DNA from: a virus | Reading direction: 5' to 3' (one strand) | UHGV virus genome: UHGV-0134521 | Length of the DNA: 37,102 nucleotides | Part shown: one piece after another, positions 3,639-12,282 of the stretch | How positions within the stretch are numbered: the first letter of the stretch is position 1 | Layout of the letters: every line of letters starts with the position of its first letter | Notes under the pieces: model-generated | Databases searched by the model: none | What the model was told of the DNA's origin: nothing | Seen by the model: only the letters and a program-made list of their open reading frames with translations | Made by a program: the position numbers and the translations under genes

Positions 3639-3935
3639 ATGCTGACGAAAGAACCATCATTTGCATCGCTGCTGGTAAAACAAAGCCCGGCAATGCACTA
3701 CGGTCACGGCTGGATCATGGGAGAGGATGGTAAACGCTGGCATCCATGTCATTCACAAGATGAATTGCTGTCTGAATTGACCACGAGCAAACGGAGAAAG
3801 TCCAAATGTATGCGGCAGAAAATGAAGTGGTTTATCACTTTCGTTACAGAGGGGAGAATTATTCAGTACCTGAAGATGATTTGCTCTGTTGCTATCCGTC
3901 GTTGTCGGGCGATGGTAGCTACTTTTTCACGCTAA
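3639..3935 (+). CDS. Hypothetical early protein; 3' part overlaps the next ORF in another frame and looks non-protein-like
   Basis: GAGG SD 5 nt before ATG 3639; C-terminal ~40 aa is Cys/Arg-rich and low in plausibility. Confidence 0.3.
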   Translation: MLTKEPSFASLLVKQSPAMHYGHGWIMGEDGKRWHPCHSQDELLSELTTSKRRKSKCMRQKMKWFITFVTEGRIIQYLKMICSVAIRRCRAMVATFSR

Positions 3936-4030
3936 AGGATGGAACCTTTATACGTGGTGAAAAAGTACAAGAAGTGATGCGTATAAAGACATCACCTCTT
4001 GAACGTTATCGGCGAAATATTTATCGGTAA
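3806..4030 (+). CDS. Hypothetical early protein, 74 aa
   Basis: ATG with GGAG SD at 9-nt spacing; globular-looking composition. Confidence 0.5.
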   Translation: MYAAENEVVYHFRYRGENYSVPEDDLLCCYPSLSGDGSYFFTLKDGTFIRGEKVQEVMRIKTSPLERYRRNIYR

Positions 4031-5221: not shown

Positions 5222-6075
5222 GCACCATCCTGAAATGGGCGGGAAATAAAACCGCCATTATGTCCGAACTGAAAAAACATCTTCCTGCTGGCCCGCGACT
5301 GGTTGAACCTTTCGCGGGTTCCTGTGCTGTGATGATGGAGACGGATTACCCCAGCTATCTTGTTGCGGATATTAATCCTGATTTAATCAACCTCTATAAA
5401 AAGATTGTCGCTGATTGCGAAGCGTTTATATCTCGTGCCAGAGCTTTATTTGAGGAAGCAAACAGGGATGTGGCTTATTACAACATAAGGCAGGAGTTTA
5501 ATTACTCCACTGAAATTACTGATTTCATGAAAGCGGTATATTTCCTGTATCTCAATCGTCATGGTTACCGTGGGTTATGTCGCTATAACAAGAGCGGGCA
5601 TTTCAACATTCCGTACGGTAATTATAAAAATCCGTATTTCCCTGAAAAAGAAATTCGCGCATTTGCAGAGAAAGCCCAGCGGGCAACGTTTATCTGCGCA
5701 AGCTTTGATGAAACGCTGGCGATGCTGCAGGTGGGGGATGTGGTGTATTGCGATCCGCCGTATGACGGTACGTTTTCCGGCTATCACACTGATGGTTTCA
5801 CTGAAGATGACCAGTATCACCTGGCATCCGTTCTTGAACATCGGTCATCAGAAGGACATCCGGTCATTGTTTCTAACAGTGACACATCCCTGATCCGTTC
5901 GCTGTATCGCAATTTTACTCACCACTACATCAAGGCAAAACGCAGCATCGGTGTGGCAGCTGGTGAGAGTAAATCTGCAACAGAAATCATCGCTGTTTCC
6001 GGGCCGCGCTGCTGGGTGGGATTTGATCCTTCGCGTGGCGTGGATAGTTCAGCCGTGTACGGAGTACGTGCATGA
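5218..6075 (+). CDS. dam: DNA adenine methyltransferase (Dam-like, N6-adenine MTase)
   Basis: N-terminal KWAGNK...EPFAGSCAV (AdoMet binding) and DPPY catalytic motif; ATG 5218 with ACGGAGG SD, overlapping upstream stop. Confidence 0.85.
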
Positions 6076-8486
6076 GTCATGCCGATATGAACAACTGCTG
6101 CGGCTTTAACGAGGCTGCCGCAGCGTTCTCATGGAACAGCCCGAAAAAGGCCATTAACCCTTATCTGGACCCGGCGGAAGTTGCGCCGGTTTCTGCGCTT
6201 TCAAACCTGATCACTCTGTACGCTGCCGATAACGAGCAGGAACAACTGCGCCGCGAGGCACTGAGTGATCAGGTCTGGGAGCGTTATTTTTTTAATGAAT
6301 CACGTGATCCTGTCCAGCGCGAAATGGAGCAGGATAAGCTCATTAGCCGGGCAAAGCTGGCGCATGAGCAGCAGCGTTTTAATCCGGATATGGTCATTCT
6401 GGCGGACGTCAACGCCCAACCTTCCCATATCAGCAAGCCGCTGATGCAACGTATTGAATACTTTAGCAGCCTGGGCAGGCCAAAGGCTTATTCCCGCTAT
6501 TTACGTGAGACGATTAAGCCATGTCTGGAACGACTGGAGCATGTACGCGACAGCCAGCTATCTGCATCTTTTCGTTTTATGGCAAGCCATGAAGGGCTGG
6601 ACGGCCTGCTTATCCTGCCTGAAATGAGTCAGGATCAGGTGAAGCGCCTGTCTACCCTTGTCGCTGCGCATATGAGCATGTGCCTTGATGCCGCTTGTGG
6701 TGATTTGTATGCCACCGATGACGTTAAGCCAGAAGAAATCCGCAAAACATGGGAAAAGGTGGCAGCGGAAACCCTGCGTCTGGATGTTATTCCGCCTGCG
6801 TTTGAGCAACTCCGTCGGAAAAGAAACCGCCGTAAACCCGTGCCCTATGAACTCATTCCGGGTTCGCTGGCGCGTATGTTGTGTGCCGACTGGTGGTATC
6901 GGAAATTATGGAAGATGCGTTGCGAATGGCGGGAAGAGCAGTTGCGTGCTGTCTGCCTGGTCAGCAAAAAAGCATCTCCCTATGTCAGCTATGAAGCCGT
7001 GATGCATAAACGTGAGCAGCGCCGCAAGTCACTGGAGTTTTTCCGTTCTCATGAACTGGTGAACGAAGAGGGCGACACGCTGGATATGGAAGACGTGGTA
7101 AACGCCAGCAGCAGCAACCCGGCGCACCGCCGCAATGAGATGATGGCCTGTGTTAAAGGTCTGGAGCTTATCGCGGAAATGCGTGGTGATTGCGCCGTTT
7201 TCTACACCATTACCTGTCCGTCACGTTTCCATTCCACGCTCAATAACGGCAGACCAAACCCAACCTGGACAAATGCGACGGTAAGACAAAGCAGCGATTA
7301 TCTGGTCGGCATGTTTGCTGCATTTCGTAAGGCGATGCACAAAGCCGGGTTGCGCTGGTATGGCGTGCGGGTGGCTGAGCCGCATCATGACGGTACGGTT
7401 CACTGGCACCTGTTGTGTTTCATGCGCAAAAAAGACCGCCGTGCCATTACTGCATTGTTGCGTAAGTTTGCCATCCGTGAAGACCGCGAGGAACTGGGTA
7501 ATAACACTGGTCCACGCTTTAAATCTGAGCTGATAAACCCGCGCAAAGGAACACCGACAAGCTACATCGCGAAATACATTAGCAAAAACATTGACGGGCG
7601 TGGTCTGGCTGGCGAGATCAGCAAGGAAACGGGTAAATCCCTGCGTGATAACGCTGAATACGTTAATGCCTGGGCGTCTCTGCATCGTGTTCAGCAATTC
7701 CGCTTCTTTGGTATTCCGGGGCGTCAGGCTTACCGTGAACTGCGATTGCTGGCTGGTCAGGCGGCAAGGCAACAGGGCGACAAAAAAGCAGGTGCGCCGG
7801 TACTGGATAACCCGCGCCTTGATGCCATCCTGGCTGCTGCTGATGCTGGTTGTTTTGCCACTTACATCATGAAGCAGGGTGGCGTACTGGTTCCCCGCAA
7901 ATATCACCTCATCAGAACTGCTTATGAAATTAACGAAGAGCCGACCGCCTATGGCGATCACGGCATTCGTATTTATGGCATCTGGTCACCCATTGCAGAG
8001 GGCAAGATCTGCACTCATGCAGTGAAGTGGAAAATAGTTCGTAAAGCCGTTGACGTTCAGGAGGCGGTAGCCGACCAGGGCGCTTGCGCCCCTTGGACTC
8101 GTGGCAATAACTGTCCCCTTGCTGAAAATTTGAACCAACAGGAGAAAGATAAATCAGCTGATGGGGACCCCAGAACGGACATTACCAGCATGGATGACAA
8201 GGAGTTGCACGATTACCTGCACAGTATGAACAAAAAAGAGCGCCGGGAACTGGCTGCAAGGTTACGCCTGGTGAAACCGAAACGGCGTAAAGACTACAAA
8301 CAGCGAATTACAGACCATCAGCGACTGCAGCTCGTGTATGAGCTGAAGTCCAGAGGATTTGATGGCAGCGAGAAAGAGGTCGATTTACTCCTTCGCGGAG
8401 GCAGTATTCCGTCAGGAGCAGGCCTGCGTATCTTCTATCGGAACCAGCGTTTGCAAGAAGATGATCAGTGGCGGAACCTGTATTAA
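6072..8486 (+). CDS. A: Replication initiation protein A (P2 gpA-like rolling-circle endonuclease), 804 aa
   Basis: Size, position after early genes, ATGA overlap with dam, P2 A-like sequence. Confidence 0.9.
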
Positions 8487-8639: not shown

Positions 8640-8828
8640 ATGCAGGACTATTTTTTGGAGTCTTTGAAGCTCCAGCGCATTGATTTTTTTCTTAAGCTTG
8701 TAGCGGCTAGTGAGTGTAGTGATGAAGAGAAGGGGCTGGCTCTGCAGTGGGTTTCTGAATTGACTGATGAACTCATGGCAAAAATCAGAACCCACGAATA
8801 CAACCGCTCAATGGATGTCATCAGCTGA
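8640..8828 (+). CDS. Small protein, 62 aa, first gene of the LexA-controlled operon (possible Tum-like antirepressor component)
   Basis: ATG at 8640 after GGAGGA; immediately downstream of the LexA box. Confidence 0.5.
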   Translation: MQDYFLESLKLQRIDFFLKLVAASECSDEEKGLALQWVSELTDELMAKIRTHEYNRSMDVIS

Positions 8829-8838
8829 GGTGACTTTT

Positions 8839-9072
8839 ATGCGCATTGAAATAATGATCGATAAAGAGCAGAAGATTAGCCAGTCTACCCTGGACGCCCT
8901 TGAATCCGAGCTTTACCGCAATCTGCGCCCCCTGTATCCCAAAACGGTAATTCGCATTCGCAAAGGTAGCTCTAACGGTGTGGAACTAACCGGACTGCAA
9001 CTGGACGAAGAAAGAAAACAAGTGATGAAAATTATGCAGAAGGTGTGGGAAGACGACAGCTGGCTGCATTAA
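8839..9072 (+). CDS. DinI-family protein, 77 aa
   Basis: MRIEIMIDKEQKI...WEDDSWLH resembles E. coli DinI (MRIEVTIAK...W...DDWF); GAGGTGA SD. Confidence 0.7.
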   Translation: MRIEIMIDKEQKISQSTLDALESELYRNLRPLYPKTVIRIRKGSSNGVELTGLQLDEERKQVMKIMQKVWEDDSWLH

Positions 9073-9207
9073 GAAACGTTGCTGGCGTCTGAACTTGCTT
9101 CTGGCGTCAGCAAGGTTGAACAACGAGCCCTTGCGAGGCGTTAACTCTGTAGTGCATGTCTATGCCGCATGAGATCGCATGATCGTTTGAGGATCGTTTT
9201 TGCTAAG

Positions 9208-9231
9208 GCCCGCCAGAACTGGCGGGCTTTT
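9208..9231 (+). terminator. Rho-independent terminator after the DinI-like operon
   Basis: GCCCGCCA / TGGCGGGC stem with short loop, followed by TTTTG. Confidence 0.55.
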
Positions 9232-9276
9232 GCGTAGATCATGCAGGTGCATGAAAACCACTACATAAAGCGGGCA

Positions 9277-9295
9277 GGCGTGGCGGGGATACGAG
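9277..9295. other. Putative cos site (GGCGTGGCGGGGATACGAG)
   Basis: Resembles the 19-nt P2/186 cohesive-end sequence from memory (first 13 nt match my recollection of 186 cos); placed between the right-end tum-like operon and the left-end portal gene as expected. Confidence 0.45.
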
Positions 9296-9309
9296 CGCGC
9301 GCTGAGTAA

Positions 9310-9343
9310 ATCCATTGCGCCAGCTAATCCAATGGATTACAAT
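9310..9343 (+). promoter_or_regulatory. Candidate sigma70 promoter (-35 TTGCGC 9315..9320, -10 TACAAT 9338..9343) with 7-bp inverted repeat TCCATTG/CAATGGA (9310..9316, 9331..9337)
   Basis: Hexamers with 17-bp spacing read from sequence; inverted repeat brackets the spacer; about 25 bp upstream of cassette gene 1. Confidence 0.35.
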
Positions 9344-9365
9344 GTTATATTTACTGAGGGCATGT

Positions 9366-10022
9366 ATGAAAGAAAAAATGATAAATGAAATGCCATCGGC
9401 CCATATTAAGCAGTTAAGGGCCAAAACTGGTTTAACTCAAGAGGAATTTTGCGAGACTTTCGGTCTTAATCTCAACACCTATCGTCATTGGGAGAGGGGG
9501 GATAGAAAACCAACTGGCTCATCATTAGTTTTGCTAAAACTTATTGAGGAGTCTTTTCACGAAGTGCTATCAATTATGAAAAAAATCAAGGGGGATGGTC
9601 CAATAATGTCAGATGGTAAAACACTTATACTTAAATCACTTGAACAAGATAGATTTTTCACTTTTGAACGTTTTGTAAAAGAAAGTTCTTTTTTTTCTGC
9701 GGATGCCATTTGTGCTCTTATTAAAGCTAATGGTTTTCCTTATGTTTATTTTTCAAATAACCAAGGGGAACTTGTATTTTCAGCAGGTTATGAAATTGAA
9801 GATATGAAAGAAGTGTTCTGGGTCAAGAATGATGATAGAACATATGGTGGATCTCTCAAAACTGTCGTTGAAAAAACTTATAGTTCAATCTATGCGATAG
9901 AAGTTGACCTGCAAGATGCTGTTTATTGGACTCCGGAAATGAGAAACTCAAGAATAGTCGATATTACCGAGAAAACAGGAATTGAACGTGACTTTTTTAA
10001 CAATATTTTAAGGAATTGGTAG
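9366..10022 (+). CDS. Cassette gene 1: XRE-family HTH domain (HigA/MqsA-antitoxin-like) fused to a ~160-aa C-terminal domain of unknown function
   Basis: N-terminal KQLRAKTGLTQEEFCETFGLNLNTYRHWERGDRKPTGSSLVLLKLIEE is a typical XRE HTH; ATG 9366 after GAGGG; AT-rich. Confidence 0.65.
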   Translation: MKEKMINEMPSAHIKQLRAKTGLTQEEFCETFGLNLNTYRHWERGDRKPTGSSLVLLKLIEESFHEVLSIMKKIKGDGPIMSDGKTLILKSLEQDRFFTFERFVKESSFFSADAICALIKANGFPYVYFSNNQGELVFSAGYEIEDMKEVFWVKNDDRTYGGSLKTVVEKTYSSIYAIEVDLQDAVYWTPEMRNSRIVDITEKTGIERDFFNNILRNW

Positions 10023-10023
10023 T

Positions 10024-10695
10024 ATGCGTGGTAAACTAATCAGCTTTGAAGGTATTGATGGTAGTGGGAAAGGAACTCAATCGAAGCTGCTTTTCGAAAA
10101 ACTAAATGCAATAGGGGAAACGGCAAAGCTATTTAGTTTTCCTTGTTACGAGAATACTTTTTTTGGAAAAGAAATAGGTGCATTTTTGAGAGGTGAATTT
10201 GGCGGGATTAATGATGTACATCCTAAACTCGCTTCAATTTTATACGCAATGGATCGTTTTGAGAAAAGGCAAGAAATTGTAAGTTCCTTAGATCAAGGAA
10301 TTGTAGTAATTTGTGACCGTTATGTCGATTCTAATATCGCGCATCAATCGTCTAAACTTGCAGTTTCTCAGCAGAAGGAATTTATTGATTGGGTTAGTGC
10401 ATTAGAATATGAATTTAATAAAATGCCTGTGCCTGATTTAACATTTTTCCTGAATGTTCCTTTGGATATTTCAAAGGAAATGGTACTGAAGAAGAAAAAA
10501 AGAAGCTACACTGACTCCGAAGAAGATATACATGAAAGAGCATATGATTATTTAGAAAGAGTATTGTTAGCATACAATAAAATTGATTTCGGCACGCGCT
10601 GGAACTTAATTGAGTGCTGTAATAATAATAATCTGATGGATCCTGAGTCAATAAGTGATTTAATATTTAAAATTGTCATGAAAGGGCTTAGATAA
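10024..10695 (+). CDS. Cassette gene 2: thymidylate-kinase-fold P-loop NMP kinase-like protein, 223 aa
   Basis: FEGIDGSGKGTQ P-loop-like segment, CDRYVDSNIAHQS (Tmk DRY motif) and PDLTFFLNVPLDIS (Tmk PDLT motif); start 1 nt after gene 1 stop. Confidence 0.7.
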   Translation: MRGKLISFEGIDGSGKGTQSKLLFEKLNAIGETAKLFSFPCYENTFFGKEIGAFLRGEFGGINDVHPKLASILYAMDRFEKRQEIVSSLDQGIVVICDRYVDSNIAHQSSKLAVSQQKEFIDWVSALEYEFNKMPVPDLTFFLNVPLDISKEMVLKKKKRSYTDSEEDIHERAYDYLERVLLAYNKIDFGTRWNLIECCNNNNLMDPESISDLIFKIVMKGLR

Positions 10696-11615
10696 TGCAC
10701 GAGTTGTTGAGAAAAAAACACTCTAGGAATAGTTTCATTACTCTATTTGTTATAGTTGTAACATTAATACTGCTTCTTCGGTATGCTGTACTTCCTTATT
10801 TTTACCCTCCACAATCAACTGATTTTGGGGGCTTTATTGCGACATTATTAAATGGGCTATTTTCATCCTTAACAGTAACCTTCTTGATCGGTTTATTTAT
10901 GTTTTGGATTCAGCCGAAACCTGAAAATTATGCTAAAATAGAAATTGCATATCCTAAAGAATTACCAGAACTTTTCAATGTTGCGTTCCTTAAAACGGAA
11001 ATTTGGTATTATAAAGGTGGATGTGGAAGATATTTTAGAACAGCTACGTTACCAAATATGGCGAAACAGGCTAGATCAAAGTCACAGTCAAAAGAAATTT
11101 TGGTTGTTATCCTTGATCCAACTAATATTGATTTATGTGAAAAACACGCTATTTACAGAAGTGGTACAGCATCACAAGAAATTGAAATTAGGCCTTGGAC
11201 AACAGAGGAAGTTCGCGCTGAGTTGTTTGCAACGATTATTACAACGCTAATTACTCAAGCCAAAGAACCTTCATTAAGAATAAAATTATCATTATGCCCT
11301 CACTATTCATCTTTTAGGATAGATTTATCAGATGATTACGCTATTATTACAAAGGAAGATCGCAATTCTCCGGCCATTATATGTCATAAGGGGACTCATT
11401 TTTATAAATCTTATAAAGATGAAGTAATTTTGTCTCTAAACCAATCACGTAGTGTTCGTATGATAGATCAAGTTGATTTTACTCTAAGAGATATTGATGG
11501 CACGAAAGTTAAATCTTTGTTATCTGATGCTGGTTTAGATGATAACAATCTCACGCCGACTTTCTATGACAAGGTCGCGTCGTTATGTAAAGAGGCGAAA
11601 AATCCATATGCATGA
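10695..11615 (+). CDS. Cassette gene 3: membrane protein with two N-terminal transmembrane helices and a ~230-aa soluble domain, 306 aa
   Basis: Two hydrophobic stretches near the N-terminus (FITLFVIVVTLILLL; LFSSLTVTFLIGLFMFWI); start overlaps gene 2 stop (TAATG). Confidence 0.6.
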   Translation: MHELLRKKHSRNSFITLFVIVVTLILLLRYAVLPYFYPPQSTDFGGFIATLLNGLFSSLTVTFLIGLFMFWIQPKPENYAKIEIAYPKELPELFNVAFLKTEIWYYKGGCGRYFRTATLPNMAKQARSKSQSKEILVVILDPTNIDLCEKHAIYRSGTASQEIEIRPWTTEEVRAELFATIITTLITQAKEPSLRIKLSLCPHYSSFRIDLSDDYAIITKEDRNSPAIICHKGTHFYKSYKDEVILSLNQSRSVRMIDQVDFTLRDIDGTKVKSLLSDAGLDDNNLTPTFYDKVASLCKEAKNPYA

Positions 11616-12246
11616 TTATATGAATGAAATCTATCAAAAAATAACTAATAAAGAATCGTTCGATGTTAAACGTTTCTTTACTTGCTTGGTTGATAATTTT
11701 GATAATTTTGATCCTACTTGGCATGCATTGGGATTTATTCATTGCCGTTTAGCTCAGAATGATCAAGGGACTTTACGCTTACATATTTGGTTCAAAAATG
11801 ATTCACATCCTGCTGAACAGTTAGAAAAAATTCATGATCATAAATTCTCGTTGAATAGCTATGTGTTGTACGGTGCAATATGTAACGAGGTTTTTGAACT
11901 TATAGAAACGTCATCTGGAAAATATGATTACCAGGCCTATGCAGTTAAATATCTTGATAAAGGTTCAGAGTTAATCCCTTTAGCCACTTATTATAATGTT
12001 AGTGATGTATCTTCAAGTATAATAAGGGCTGGTTGTTATTATACGGTTGACTCCAGAGAGTTTCACCGATCATCACTTGTAAATAGTGAGATGGCGATAT
12101 CACTAGTGGCGACTTTTGAGCATAAAAATAAAGACCCTTTGACTTTGGTATCTCATGGGGGGAGTGAGTTTAAAATAAGAGATAAGGTTCCATTTGATAA
12201 GAACAAATGGGTGGAGATATTAAAAGAATACATATCAAAATTATGA
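11608..12246 (+). CDS. Cassette gene 4: hypothetical soluble protein, ~212 aa
   Basis: In-frame ATG at 11608 overlapping gene 3 stop by 8 nt; His-rich segments; no family recognised. Confidence 0.55.
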   Translation: MHDYMNEIYQKITNKESFDVKRFFTCLVDNFDNFDPTWHALGFIHCRLAQNDQGTLRLHIWFKNDSHPAEQLEKIHDHKFSLNSYVLYGAICNEVFELIETSSGKYDYQAYAVKYLDKGSELIPLATYYNVSDVSSSIIRAGCYYTVDSREFHRSSLVNSEMAISLVATFEHKNKDPLTLVSHGGSEFKIRDKVPFDKNKWVEILKEYISKL

Positions 12247-12253
12247 TGTTAGC

Positions 12254-12277
12254 TGCCAGATAGGATTTATCTGGCAG
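12254..12277. terminator. Hairpin (CTGCCAGATA / TATCTGGCAG) between convergent cassette gene 4 and portal gene
   Basis: Perfect 10-bp stem, short loop, followed by TGGGTTT on the + strand. Confidence 0.5.
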
Positions 12278-12282
12278 TGGGT

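Follow-up and report, generated by a model that had tools for sequence, protein, structure and literature searches.

A conserved palindrome in the promoter of a four-gene prophage cassette as candidate operator for autorepression by the cassette's first gene

The two repressors HigA2 and MqsA are the nearest characterised relatives of the system analysed here, namely a 15-bp palindrome (positions 9325-9339) in the promoter of a four-gene cassette of the virus genome UHGV-0134521, together with the protein of gene 1, the first gene of that cassette. The whole stretch of DNA analysed, 37,102 nucleotides, is called the window below. HigA2 is encoded in higBA2 of Vibrio cholerae (PDB 5J9I, 8A0W/8A0X) and its operator, a single inverted repeat TGTACGC-N5-GCGTACA, has been footprinted (PMC11006873). 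This operator begins after the -35 and runs over the -10; HigA2 binds it as a dimer, using helices 4-5 of the helix-turn-helix (HTH) domain, which leads to autorepression, and dimers of this type span 15-17 bp (PMC11006873). MqsA recognises ACCT-N3-AGGT inside TAACCT-N3-AGGTTA and is a repressor of its own operon; the bases in the centre do not matter, whereas Asn97 and Arg101 are required (PMC5422877). Based on sequence comparison, we propose that the palindrome at 9325-9339 is probably the operator of the cassette's own promoter, where a dimer of the gene 1 protein would bind and repress the operon.

Gene 1 (9366..10022, plus strand) encodes a protein of 218 amino acids (aa) with an N-terminal five-helix HTH of the XRE type at about residues 10-75. 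Upstream of it the window reads gcgctgagtaAATCCATTGcgccagcTAATCCAATGGATTAcaatgttatatttactgagggcatgt (9300-9365), followed by the ATG at 9366. A repeat finder detected in this region the compact palindrome TAATCCAATGGATTA, that is TAATCCA-A-TGGATTA (9325..9339), with a 7-1-7 structure and the half-sites TAATC and GATTA 5 bp apart. Regarding the layout of the predicted promoter, the -35 hexamer TTGCGC (9315..9320, plus strand) is followed by 4 nt and then by the palindrome, whose last TA opens the -10 hexamer TACAAT (9338..9343, plus strand), which leaves a spacer of 17 nt. TACAAT matches the consensus at 5 of 6 positions and TTGCGC at 3 of 6, and because of this -35 the promoter stayed below the threshold of a sigma-70 consensus scan and was not listed.

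We measured the information content of 17 distinct upstream sequences of cassette homologues, with identities down to 38%, aligned on the palindrome. The four bases TTGC (9315-9318) had 2.0, 2.0, 2.0 and 1.7 bits, the 14 specified positions of the palindrome had a mean of 1.98 bits with a free central base (A/T/C), and CAAT (9340-9343) had 1.4-2.0 bits, while the mean of the flanks, 45 nt on each side, was 0.66 bits. The palindrome is perfect in 16 of the 17 sequences and has one mismatch in the remaining one. The design TTGCnn, 4-5 nt, TAATCCA(A/T/C)TGGATTA, CAAT is conserved upstream of all cassette homologues, and TTGC, the palindrome and CAAT are the only three upstream blocks kept across the P2 hotspot, P4-like satellite and island contexts. 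These values demonstrate purifying selection on the predicted -35, the palindrome and the predicted -10. Furthermore, TTG(C) and TACAAT are kept at a fixed spacing in the 17 sequences, which supports a cassette-borne promoter of the sigma-70 type at this place.

It might be argued that the palindrome has no regulatory role at all, being a chance repeat, a by-product of promoter conservation or an RNA hairpin. Around 2.8 perfect 7-1-7 palindromes and around 4 perfect 9-bp inverted repeats are expected by chance in one window, and the RNA fold of the promoter region is only marginally more stable than that of its shuffles (z -2.0). However, the spacers of sigma-70 promoters are not normally conserved, and here 13 spacer bases are invariant across saturating divergence; the palindrome also recurs before unrelated downstream genes. 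A 7-bp stem closed by a loop of a single nucleotide is impossible in RNA, and the predicted transcription start is downstream of the element. We therefore consider the absence of a role very unlikely, and the RNA structure reading was rejected, as there was no Rfam match, the z-score was modest and the fold was not conserved.

The protein and its site were compared with the two described systems. The similarity of gene 1 to HigA2 is marginal at the sequence level (E-value about 0.003-0.02). Their operators are alike in having 5-bp cores that lie 5 bp apart, TACGC-N5-GCGTA in HigA2 and TAATC-N5-GATTA here, and the half-sites differ at positions 3-4. HigA2 has a disordered N-terminal tail that neutralises the toxin and its gene stands after the toxin gene, whereas gene 1 is the first of its operon and has an N-terminal HTH and a folded C-terminal domain of 140 aa; the HigA2 operon includes a toxin and the cassette has no RelE/HigB-like toxin. 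MqsA (PDB 3GN5, 3O9X) is the closest solved sequence relative of gene 1 (E-value 4.5e-5 over residues 13-62), and gene 1 matches the HTH region of the Pfam family MqsA_antitoxin. Both have the same 15-bp operator outline, TAACCT-N3-AGGTTA in MqsA and TAATCC-N3-GGATTA here, with free central bases. Asn97 of MqsA corresponds to the invariant Asn37 of gene 1, while Arg101 and Ser100 are replaced by His41 and Arg40. Unlike MqsA, gene 1 lacks the N-terminal zinc-binding domain, its partner genes are unrelated, and the cassette has one palindrome where the Escherichia coli mqsRA promoter has two. Gene 1 scored 38 bits against TIGR03830 (CxxCG_CxxCG_HTH), whose cut-off is 61.8, and only the HTH part was matched (profile positions 59-121). 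This score and the missing zinc domain mean that gene 1 is not a member of the MqsA family.

Nevertheless, the operators of HigA2, MqsA and gene 1 can be written in one register, TA-NN-C N5 G-NN-TA, with TACGC, TAACC and TAATC as half-sites. Judging by its sequence, gene 1 has two elements of the HigA2/MqsA-type design, the five-helix XRE HTH of this clade and TA-NN-C half-sites 5 bp apart, and its HTH is structurally akin to those of HigA2 and MqsA. The operator position of that design, which starts behind the -35 and includes the -10 of the operon's promoter, is found here by sequence and by conservation.

The link between the palindrome and the recognition helix is the main argument for the HTH of gene 1 as the binding protein. 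The recognition-helix region of gene 1, NLNTYRHWERGDRKP, is nearly invariant within the family. Loci (cited by our labels, L001 onwards) were picked by protein similarity alone, without any DNA criterion, from viral, genome and metagenome collections, and the palindrome was scored as present when it was found with at most 1 mismatch at most 1.2 kb upstream. It was present in all the 22 loci with a helix RHWE[RK]G[DNE]R and in none of the 27 loci with other helices. Five of the positive loci are not cassettes: four of them (L189-L192) are operons of a RelE (PF06296) toxin and an HTH antitoxin of 94-113 aa, and one (L196) belongs to a third operon type. An identical palindrome, TAATCCAWTGGATTA, is found at the corresponding promoter position of the four toxin-antitoxin operons, and the identity between their HTH and the one of gene 1 is 48-53%, with RHWERGDR as the common helix; in contrast to the cassette, they consist of two genes with the toxin first, and the antitoxin lacks the 140-aa domain. 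In L190, L191, L192 and L196 the palindrome comes after TTGACA, TTGACG or TTGATG and its last TA opens the -10, while in L189 the palindrome is present and the promoter hexamers are not clear. We found no experimental study of operons of the L189-L192 type in the literature searched.

Thus, the pairing of domain and site does not depend on the genes that are regulated, and on these grounds we infer that the gene 1 protein binds the palindrome, probably as a repressor. The first-pass annotation of this DNA had pointed to the XRE HTH of gene 1 as the natural binder and had compared it with antitoxins. The first suggestion gains from the fact that the palindrome tracks RHWE(R/K)G(D/N/E)R over three unrelated operon types, and the second was apt, since an identical operator and promoter layout precedes the operons of RelE (PF06296) and HTH antitoxin.

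Relatives with other helices also have symmetric sites. L180, with the helix RHWEQGRRYP, has the operator TACTCCATTGGAGTA in the promoter TTGACG-17-TAGTTA; L185, with QNWEQGRRRP, has TACGCCATTGGCGTA in TTGACA-17-TATACT, and this operator contains the HigA2 core; L197/L198, with RHWEQG(V/M)HK, have TAACCGTTGCGGTTA. In all of them the operator is altered symmetrically in both arms and the layout is the same, which hints at a readable code from helix to operator in this HTH clade. The palindromes of these relatives are of a 6-3-6 type, with TACTCC arms in L180 (2391-2405), TACGCC arms in L185 (2891-2905) and TAACCG arms in L197 (2422-2436). An actinophage-like group with RTVRHWEQGKY (L203-L208) has an upstream palindrome TTCCTA-N3-TAGGAA. 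In L196 (2018-2042, on a contig shared with L161) the operator is lengthened to a perfect 25-bp palindrome, CATTATAATCCAATGGATTATAATG, with TATAAT on each strand, and this may be a divergent promoter pair on one operator.

The first-pass annotation had described a different element, an inverted repeat with 7-bp arms that flanks the spacer between -35 and -10. The repeat exists and it is perfect, although its arms are longer, 9 bp each (AATCCATTG at 9309-9317 and CAATGGATT at 9330-9338, 12 nt apart), and the 7-mers lie at 9311-9317 and 9330-9336 instead of 9310-9316 and 9331-9337, one base off. The compact palindrome, which shares the right arm of this wide repeat, had been missed. Nor does the repeat flank the spacer as a conserved unit: the conserved palindrome is located towards the 3' end of the spacer and runs into the first two bases of the -10, and the left arm is specific to one lineage and evolves like the flanking DNA. 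Nevertheless, two other parts of that annotation hold. The hexamers TTGCGC-17-TACAAT are as it gave them, and its suggestion of a palindromic operator overlapping the promoter is supported by the conserved block 9325-9339.

Could both arms of the wide repeat be bound, 21 bp from centre to centre, so that the operator brackets the -35 and the spacer? The arm centres are two helical turns apart, and in L029 a GGATT in reverse orientation occupies the same -16 position. The window contains 11 loci with perfect inverted repeats whose arms are 9 bp or longer and whose spacer does not exceed 30 nt, compared with 4.0 +/- 2.1 in dinucleotide shuffles, where the rate is about 0.0065 per 60-bp region. 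A perfect pair of 9-mers is therefore unusual for a promoter specified in advance, and this is suggestive, not decisive after a scan of 37 kb. On the other hand, the left arm (9309..9317, plus strand) looks like a single additional half-site that takes in the TTG of the -35, which accounts for 3 of its 9 bases, and its remaining positions (9309-9314) had 0.3-0.7 bits, the same as the background. The arm is whole only in the window, L015 and L017, which form the closest lineage. Among relatives with 83-84% protein identity (L010, L019, L175) it has decayed to CATTCATTG, with 2 substitutions in the 6 positions outside TTG, which is the rate of the flanks, whereas the neighbouring palindrome has not changed. 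None of the distant cassettes and none of the toxin-antitoxin relatives has this arm. In addition, extra AATCC/GGATT half-sites at most 60 nt from the palindrome are at chance level (7 in 21 sequences, 4.6 expected), and the wide repeat extends over about 30 bp, in contrast to the span of HigA2-type dimers. Binding of both arms is thus improbable, and the left arm, outside the conserved design, would be at most an auxiliary half-site of this lineage.

Some other half-sites and repeats were seen around the promoters. TAATCC or GGATT occur sporadically 16-40 nt upstream of the palindrome in L011 (4918-4923), L190 (1993-1998) and L029 (3918-3922); they have decayed in close relatives, and their overall frequency is that of chance. 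In the window, an outer inverted repeat AGTAAAT / ATTTACT (9305-9311 / 9349-9355; 13-nt arms at 85%) brackets the whole promoter and is confined, like the left arm, to the window, L015 and L017.

Returning to autorepression through the compact palindrome, the dimer of gene 1 would sit on 9325-9339 by means of its HigA2/MqsA-type HTH, with one recognition helix on each half-site. The palindrome occupies the spacer's 3' half and reaches two bases into the -10, so that the bound protein would exclude RNA polymerase, and the outcome would be negative autoregulation of a translationally coupled operon of four genes. Transcription is predicted to start around 9349-9351, with a leader of about 16 nt that contains the Shine-Dalgarno sequence GAGGG. 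The C-terminal domain of gene 1, as a sensor or as a module that binds a partner, possibly relieves the repression.

The protein might instead act positively or in both ways on the palindrome, as the controller (C) proteins of restriction-modification systems do. This seems unlikely, because the switches of C proteins are built on tandem sites, located upstream of the -35 and overlapping it, and there is only one palindrome here, which extends over the spacer and into the beginning of the -10, with an optimal spacing of 17 nt, a position known for occlusion. Moreover, HigA2 and MqsA are repressors with the same geometry, and the toxin-antitoxin relatives with a consensus -35 TTGACA share the layout. 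We also considered whether gene 1 itself is a C protein, and this was rejected: the match to the model is weak (E-value 3e-4), the single palindrome is in the spacer and -10, where C-box operators differ in format and position, and there are no restriction or methylase genes in the cassette. Regulation of the CapH/CapP type, as in the cyclic-oligonucleotide-based anti-phage signalling system (CBASS), was rejected too, with only an E-value of 9.6e-4 for the capH model and no peptidase in or beside the cassette. Gene 1 differs from CapH and from the restriction-modification regulators in that its HTH is fused to a system-specific domain and, in comparison with the HTH regulators of anti-phage systems, the cassette is only a candidate defence system.

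Several points weigh against autorepression through the palindrome. The cassette loci share an ancestor, and the palindrome is consequently one inherited feature and not 17 independent events; it is for this reason that the independent support has to come from the decayed flanks and from the operons outside the cassette family, those of the toxin-antitoxin type included. The -35 is weak and kept the promoter out of the consensus scan. The position of the base-contacting Arg101 of MqsA is occupied by His41, so the contacts of MqsA cannot simply be transferred, although the changes at His41 and Arg40 are compatible with the different inner half-site. The motif was not found in the searchable literature. 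Finally, the bare 15-mer is unspecific, since the IMG/VR matches listed for TAATCCANTGGATTA are mostly a coding motif, DNPMDYEFPE, in unrelated phages.

As most of the listed matches were this coding motif, we dropped the scan of IMG/VR with the bare 15-mer as a test of specificity; the workable searches were those with the 15-mer plus NAAT, followed by loci picked by protein. In the IMG/VR loci L030-L149, TAATCCA(A/T)TGGATTA encodes a conserved peptide (…DNPMDYEFPEIEEYF…) of unrelated, probably marine phages, which has no tie to the operator.

The cassette occupies an AT-rich block (9366-12246, 32-36% GC) with four genes separated by one 1-nt gap and two overlaps, all on the plus strand. The C-terminal domain of gene 1, of about 140 aa, is conserved and has no solved structural analogue. 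Gene 2 (10024..10695), 1 nt past the stop of gene 1, is dTMP-kinase-like (Pfam Thymidylate_kin, 2.4e-24; 86.5 bits against TIGR00041, cut-off 83.25), and PADLOC gave only weak matches for this kinase (PDC-M51B 2e-10, VakA 2e-5). Gene 3 (10695..11615), which overlaps the stop of gene 2, encodes a membrane protein of 306 aa with a hydrophobic N-terminus; it is kept in every cassette locus and matched no family in Pfam, NCBIfam or PADLOC. Gene 4 (11608..12246, about 208-212 aa, from the gene calls in identical loci) overlaps the end of gene 3 and had no match in Pfam or PADLOC, where it was scanned as 11611-12246, nor in NCBIfam (11608-12246). No toxin family of Pfam, NCBIfam or PADLOC was matched by genes 2-4, and with no recognisable toxin the cassette is not assignable as a type II toxin-antitoxin module. 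The Shine-Dalgarno sequence GAGGG (9356..9360, plus strand) is 5 nt before the ATG, and GGAGG/GAGGG is kept before the start in the relatives, several of which have in-frame stops between the palindrome and the ATG. Both facts place the start at 9366, exclude a longer N-terminus and make the palindrome non-coding.

We found 24 homologues of gene 1 with 38-93% protein identity, and each recovered locus has the same four-gene cassette; the scan of the genome collection gave only two true cassette relatives. The settings are P2-like hotspots, P4-like satellites (L015, L021), a lambda-P-type element (L022) and islands in Vibrio (L025) and Acinetobacter (L026, L028). The upstream sequences of the loci with an identical gene 1 protein (L001-L006) are uninformative on conservation because they are almost identical to the window (99% mean column identity, with the whole 9300-9380 invariant). 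The cassette is kept as a unit across Enterobacterales, Vibrio and Acinetobacter (L010-L029), in known defence hotspots, and from these sequence data it looks like an uncharacterised anti-phage candidate; the hotspot literature searched contained no description of it. More tentatively, gene 1 could be an antitoxin-type autorepressor module fused to a 140-aa domain that senses infection or neutralises the downstream effectors, and in that case the operator would switch on and off an uncharacterised anti-phage system of dTMP-kinase-like, membrane and unknown proteins, which is possible and rather doubtful at present.

The window is a P2/186-like prophage. Rightward, the order is gpA, a DinI-like gene, a hairpin, cos, the four-gene block, a second hairpin and the converging portal and terminase genes. 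The replication protein gpA is at 6072-8486 (Pfam Phage_GPA 9e-128) and the DinI-like gene at 8767-9072, upstream of the cassette. On the 3' side of the latter there is a hairpin, an inverted repeat with a T-run (9205..9232, plus strand), with an RNA fold of -24.6 kcal/mol (z = -5.35); none of 200 shuffles was equally stable, and it probably ends the upstream transcription. The cos cohesive end GGCGTGGCGGGGATACGAG (9277..9295, plus strand) was placed by alignment with the annotated P2 cosR/cosL. With such a strong terminator and cos just upstream, and with four genes so tightly coupled, a promoter is needed exactly here. A hairpin with an 11-bp stem between gene 4 and the converging portal gene (12252..12278; inverted repeat 12253/12269; -17.2 kcal/mol, z = -4.1) is probably the terminator of the operon.

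The conserved backbone stops at around 9306 and the cargo starts at around 9307. The backbone homology ends at 9306-9311 (query position 67-72) in 1282 records of E. coli and in 79 of phages, and the alternative cargos at the same junction carry unrelated sequence beyond this point. Therefore, the repeat and the promoter belong to the cargo, starting 3 bp inside it, with the element 3-20 bp to the right of the junction. This BLAST search of complete E. coli genomes and GenBank phages served to place the junction; the cassette itself was not found in them, and only the 67-72 bp of cos flank matched. The site is the cos-adjacent cargo hotspot between gpA and gpQ reported earlier (Rousset et al. 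2022, PMC9122126). The cos core lies directly to the left of the cargo (9240-9306), and the same cos flank precedes the cassette in the P4-like satellite L015 (3885-3945) and in a rearranged 186-like element without gpA at that spot (L019/L020), an arrangement that fits an exchange of cargos through the shared cos sequence.

Such a location raises the question of whether the palindrome is the site of another factor, such as a regulator from the host or from a helper phage, or a protein that acts in recombination or packaging where cassette and cos meet. The cos cohesive end is only about 30 bp away from the palindrome and the cargo junction about 20 bp, and the cassette moves among P2, P4-like and other elements. 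However, in loci without cos, P2 or P4, that is in the Acinetobacter and Vibrio islands and in GC-rich toxin-antitoxin operons, the palindrome is still in a fixed register relative to the -35, the -10 and the start codon, and the HTH is the only protein consistently linked to it. Furthermore, neither the opposite end of the cassette nor the rest of the prophage contains a second copy, and the sole other match in the window has 3 mismatches, as expected by chance. We give hardly any weight to another factor.

Two other repeats of the window deserve to be recorded. Inside the open reading frame (ORF) 3806-4030 of the early region, 3920-3988 contains two interleaved perfect inverted repeats, TACTTTTTCAC/GTGAAAAAGTA and CTTTATACG/CGTATAAAG. 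At 9-30, outside the prophage, the perfect palindrome ATTGTGTACACAAT stands just upstream of, and overlaps, the start of an ORF of 188 aa (20-586); this ORF is TetR-like by eye, and the palindrome is possibly its own operator.

Negative autoregulation by an XRE repressor encoded in the operon, in the style of the antitoxins, is an ordinary concept. What is gained is a precise 15-bp candidate operator, and a promoter, for a widespread and unstudied four-gene cargo cassette of the P2/P4 defence hotspot, which can be used to clone the cassette with its native promoter or to derepress it. The comparison also suggests a recognition rule, in which the helix RHWERGDR goes with TAATC-N5-GATTA and symmetric operator variants go with helix variants in the HigA2/MqsA clade. 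The predicted autorepressor module, HTH and TAATC-N5-GATTA operator, is common to the cassette and to RelE-family toxin-antitoxin operons, and the presence of the same regulatory module in these operons and in a cassette of a defence hotspot would mean that such modules are exchanged.
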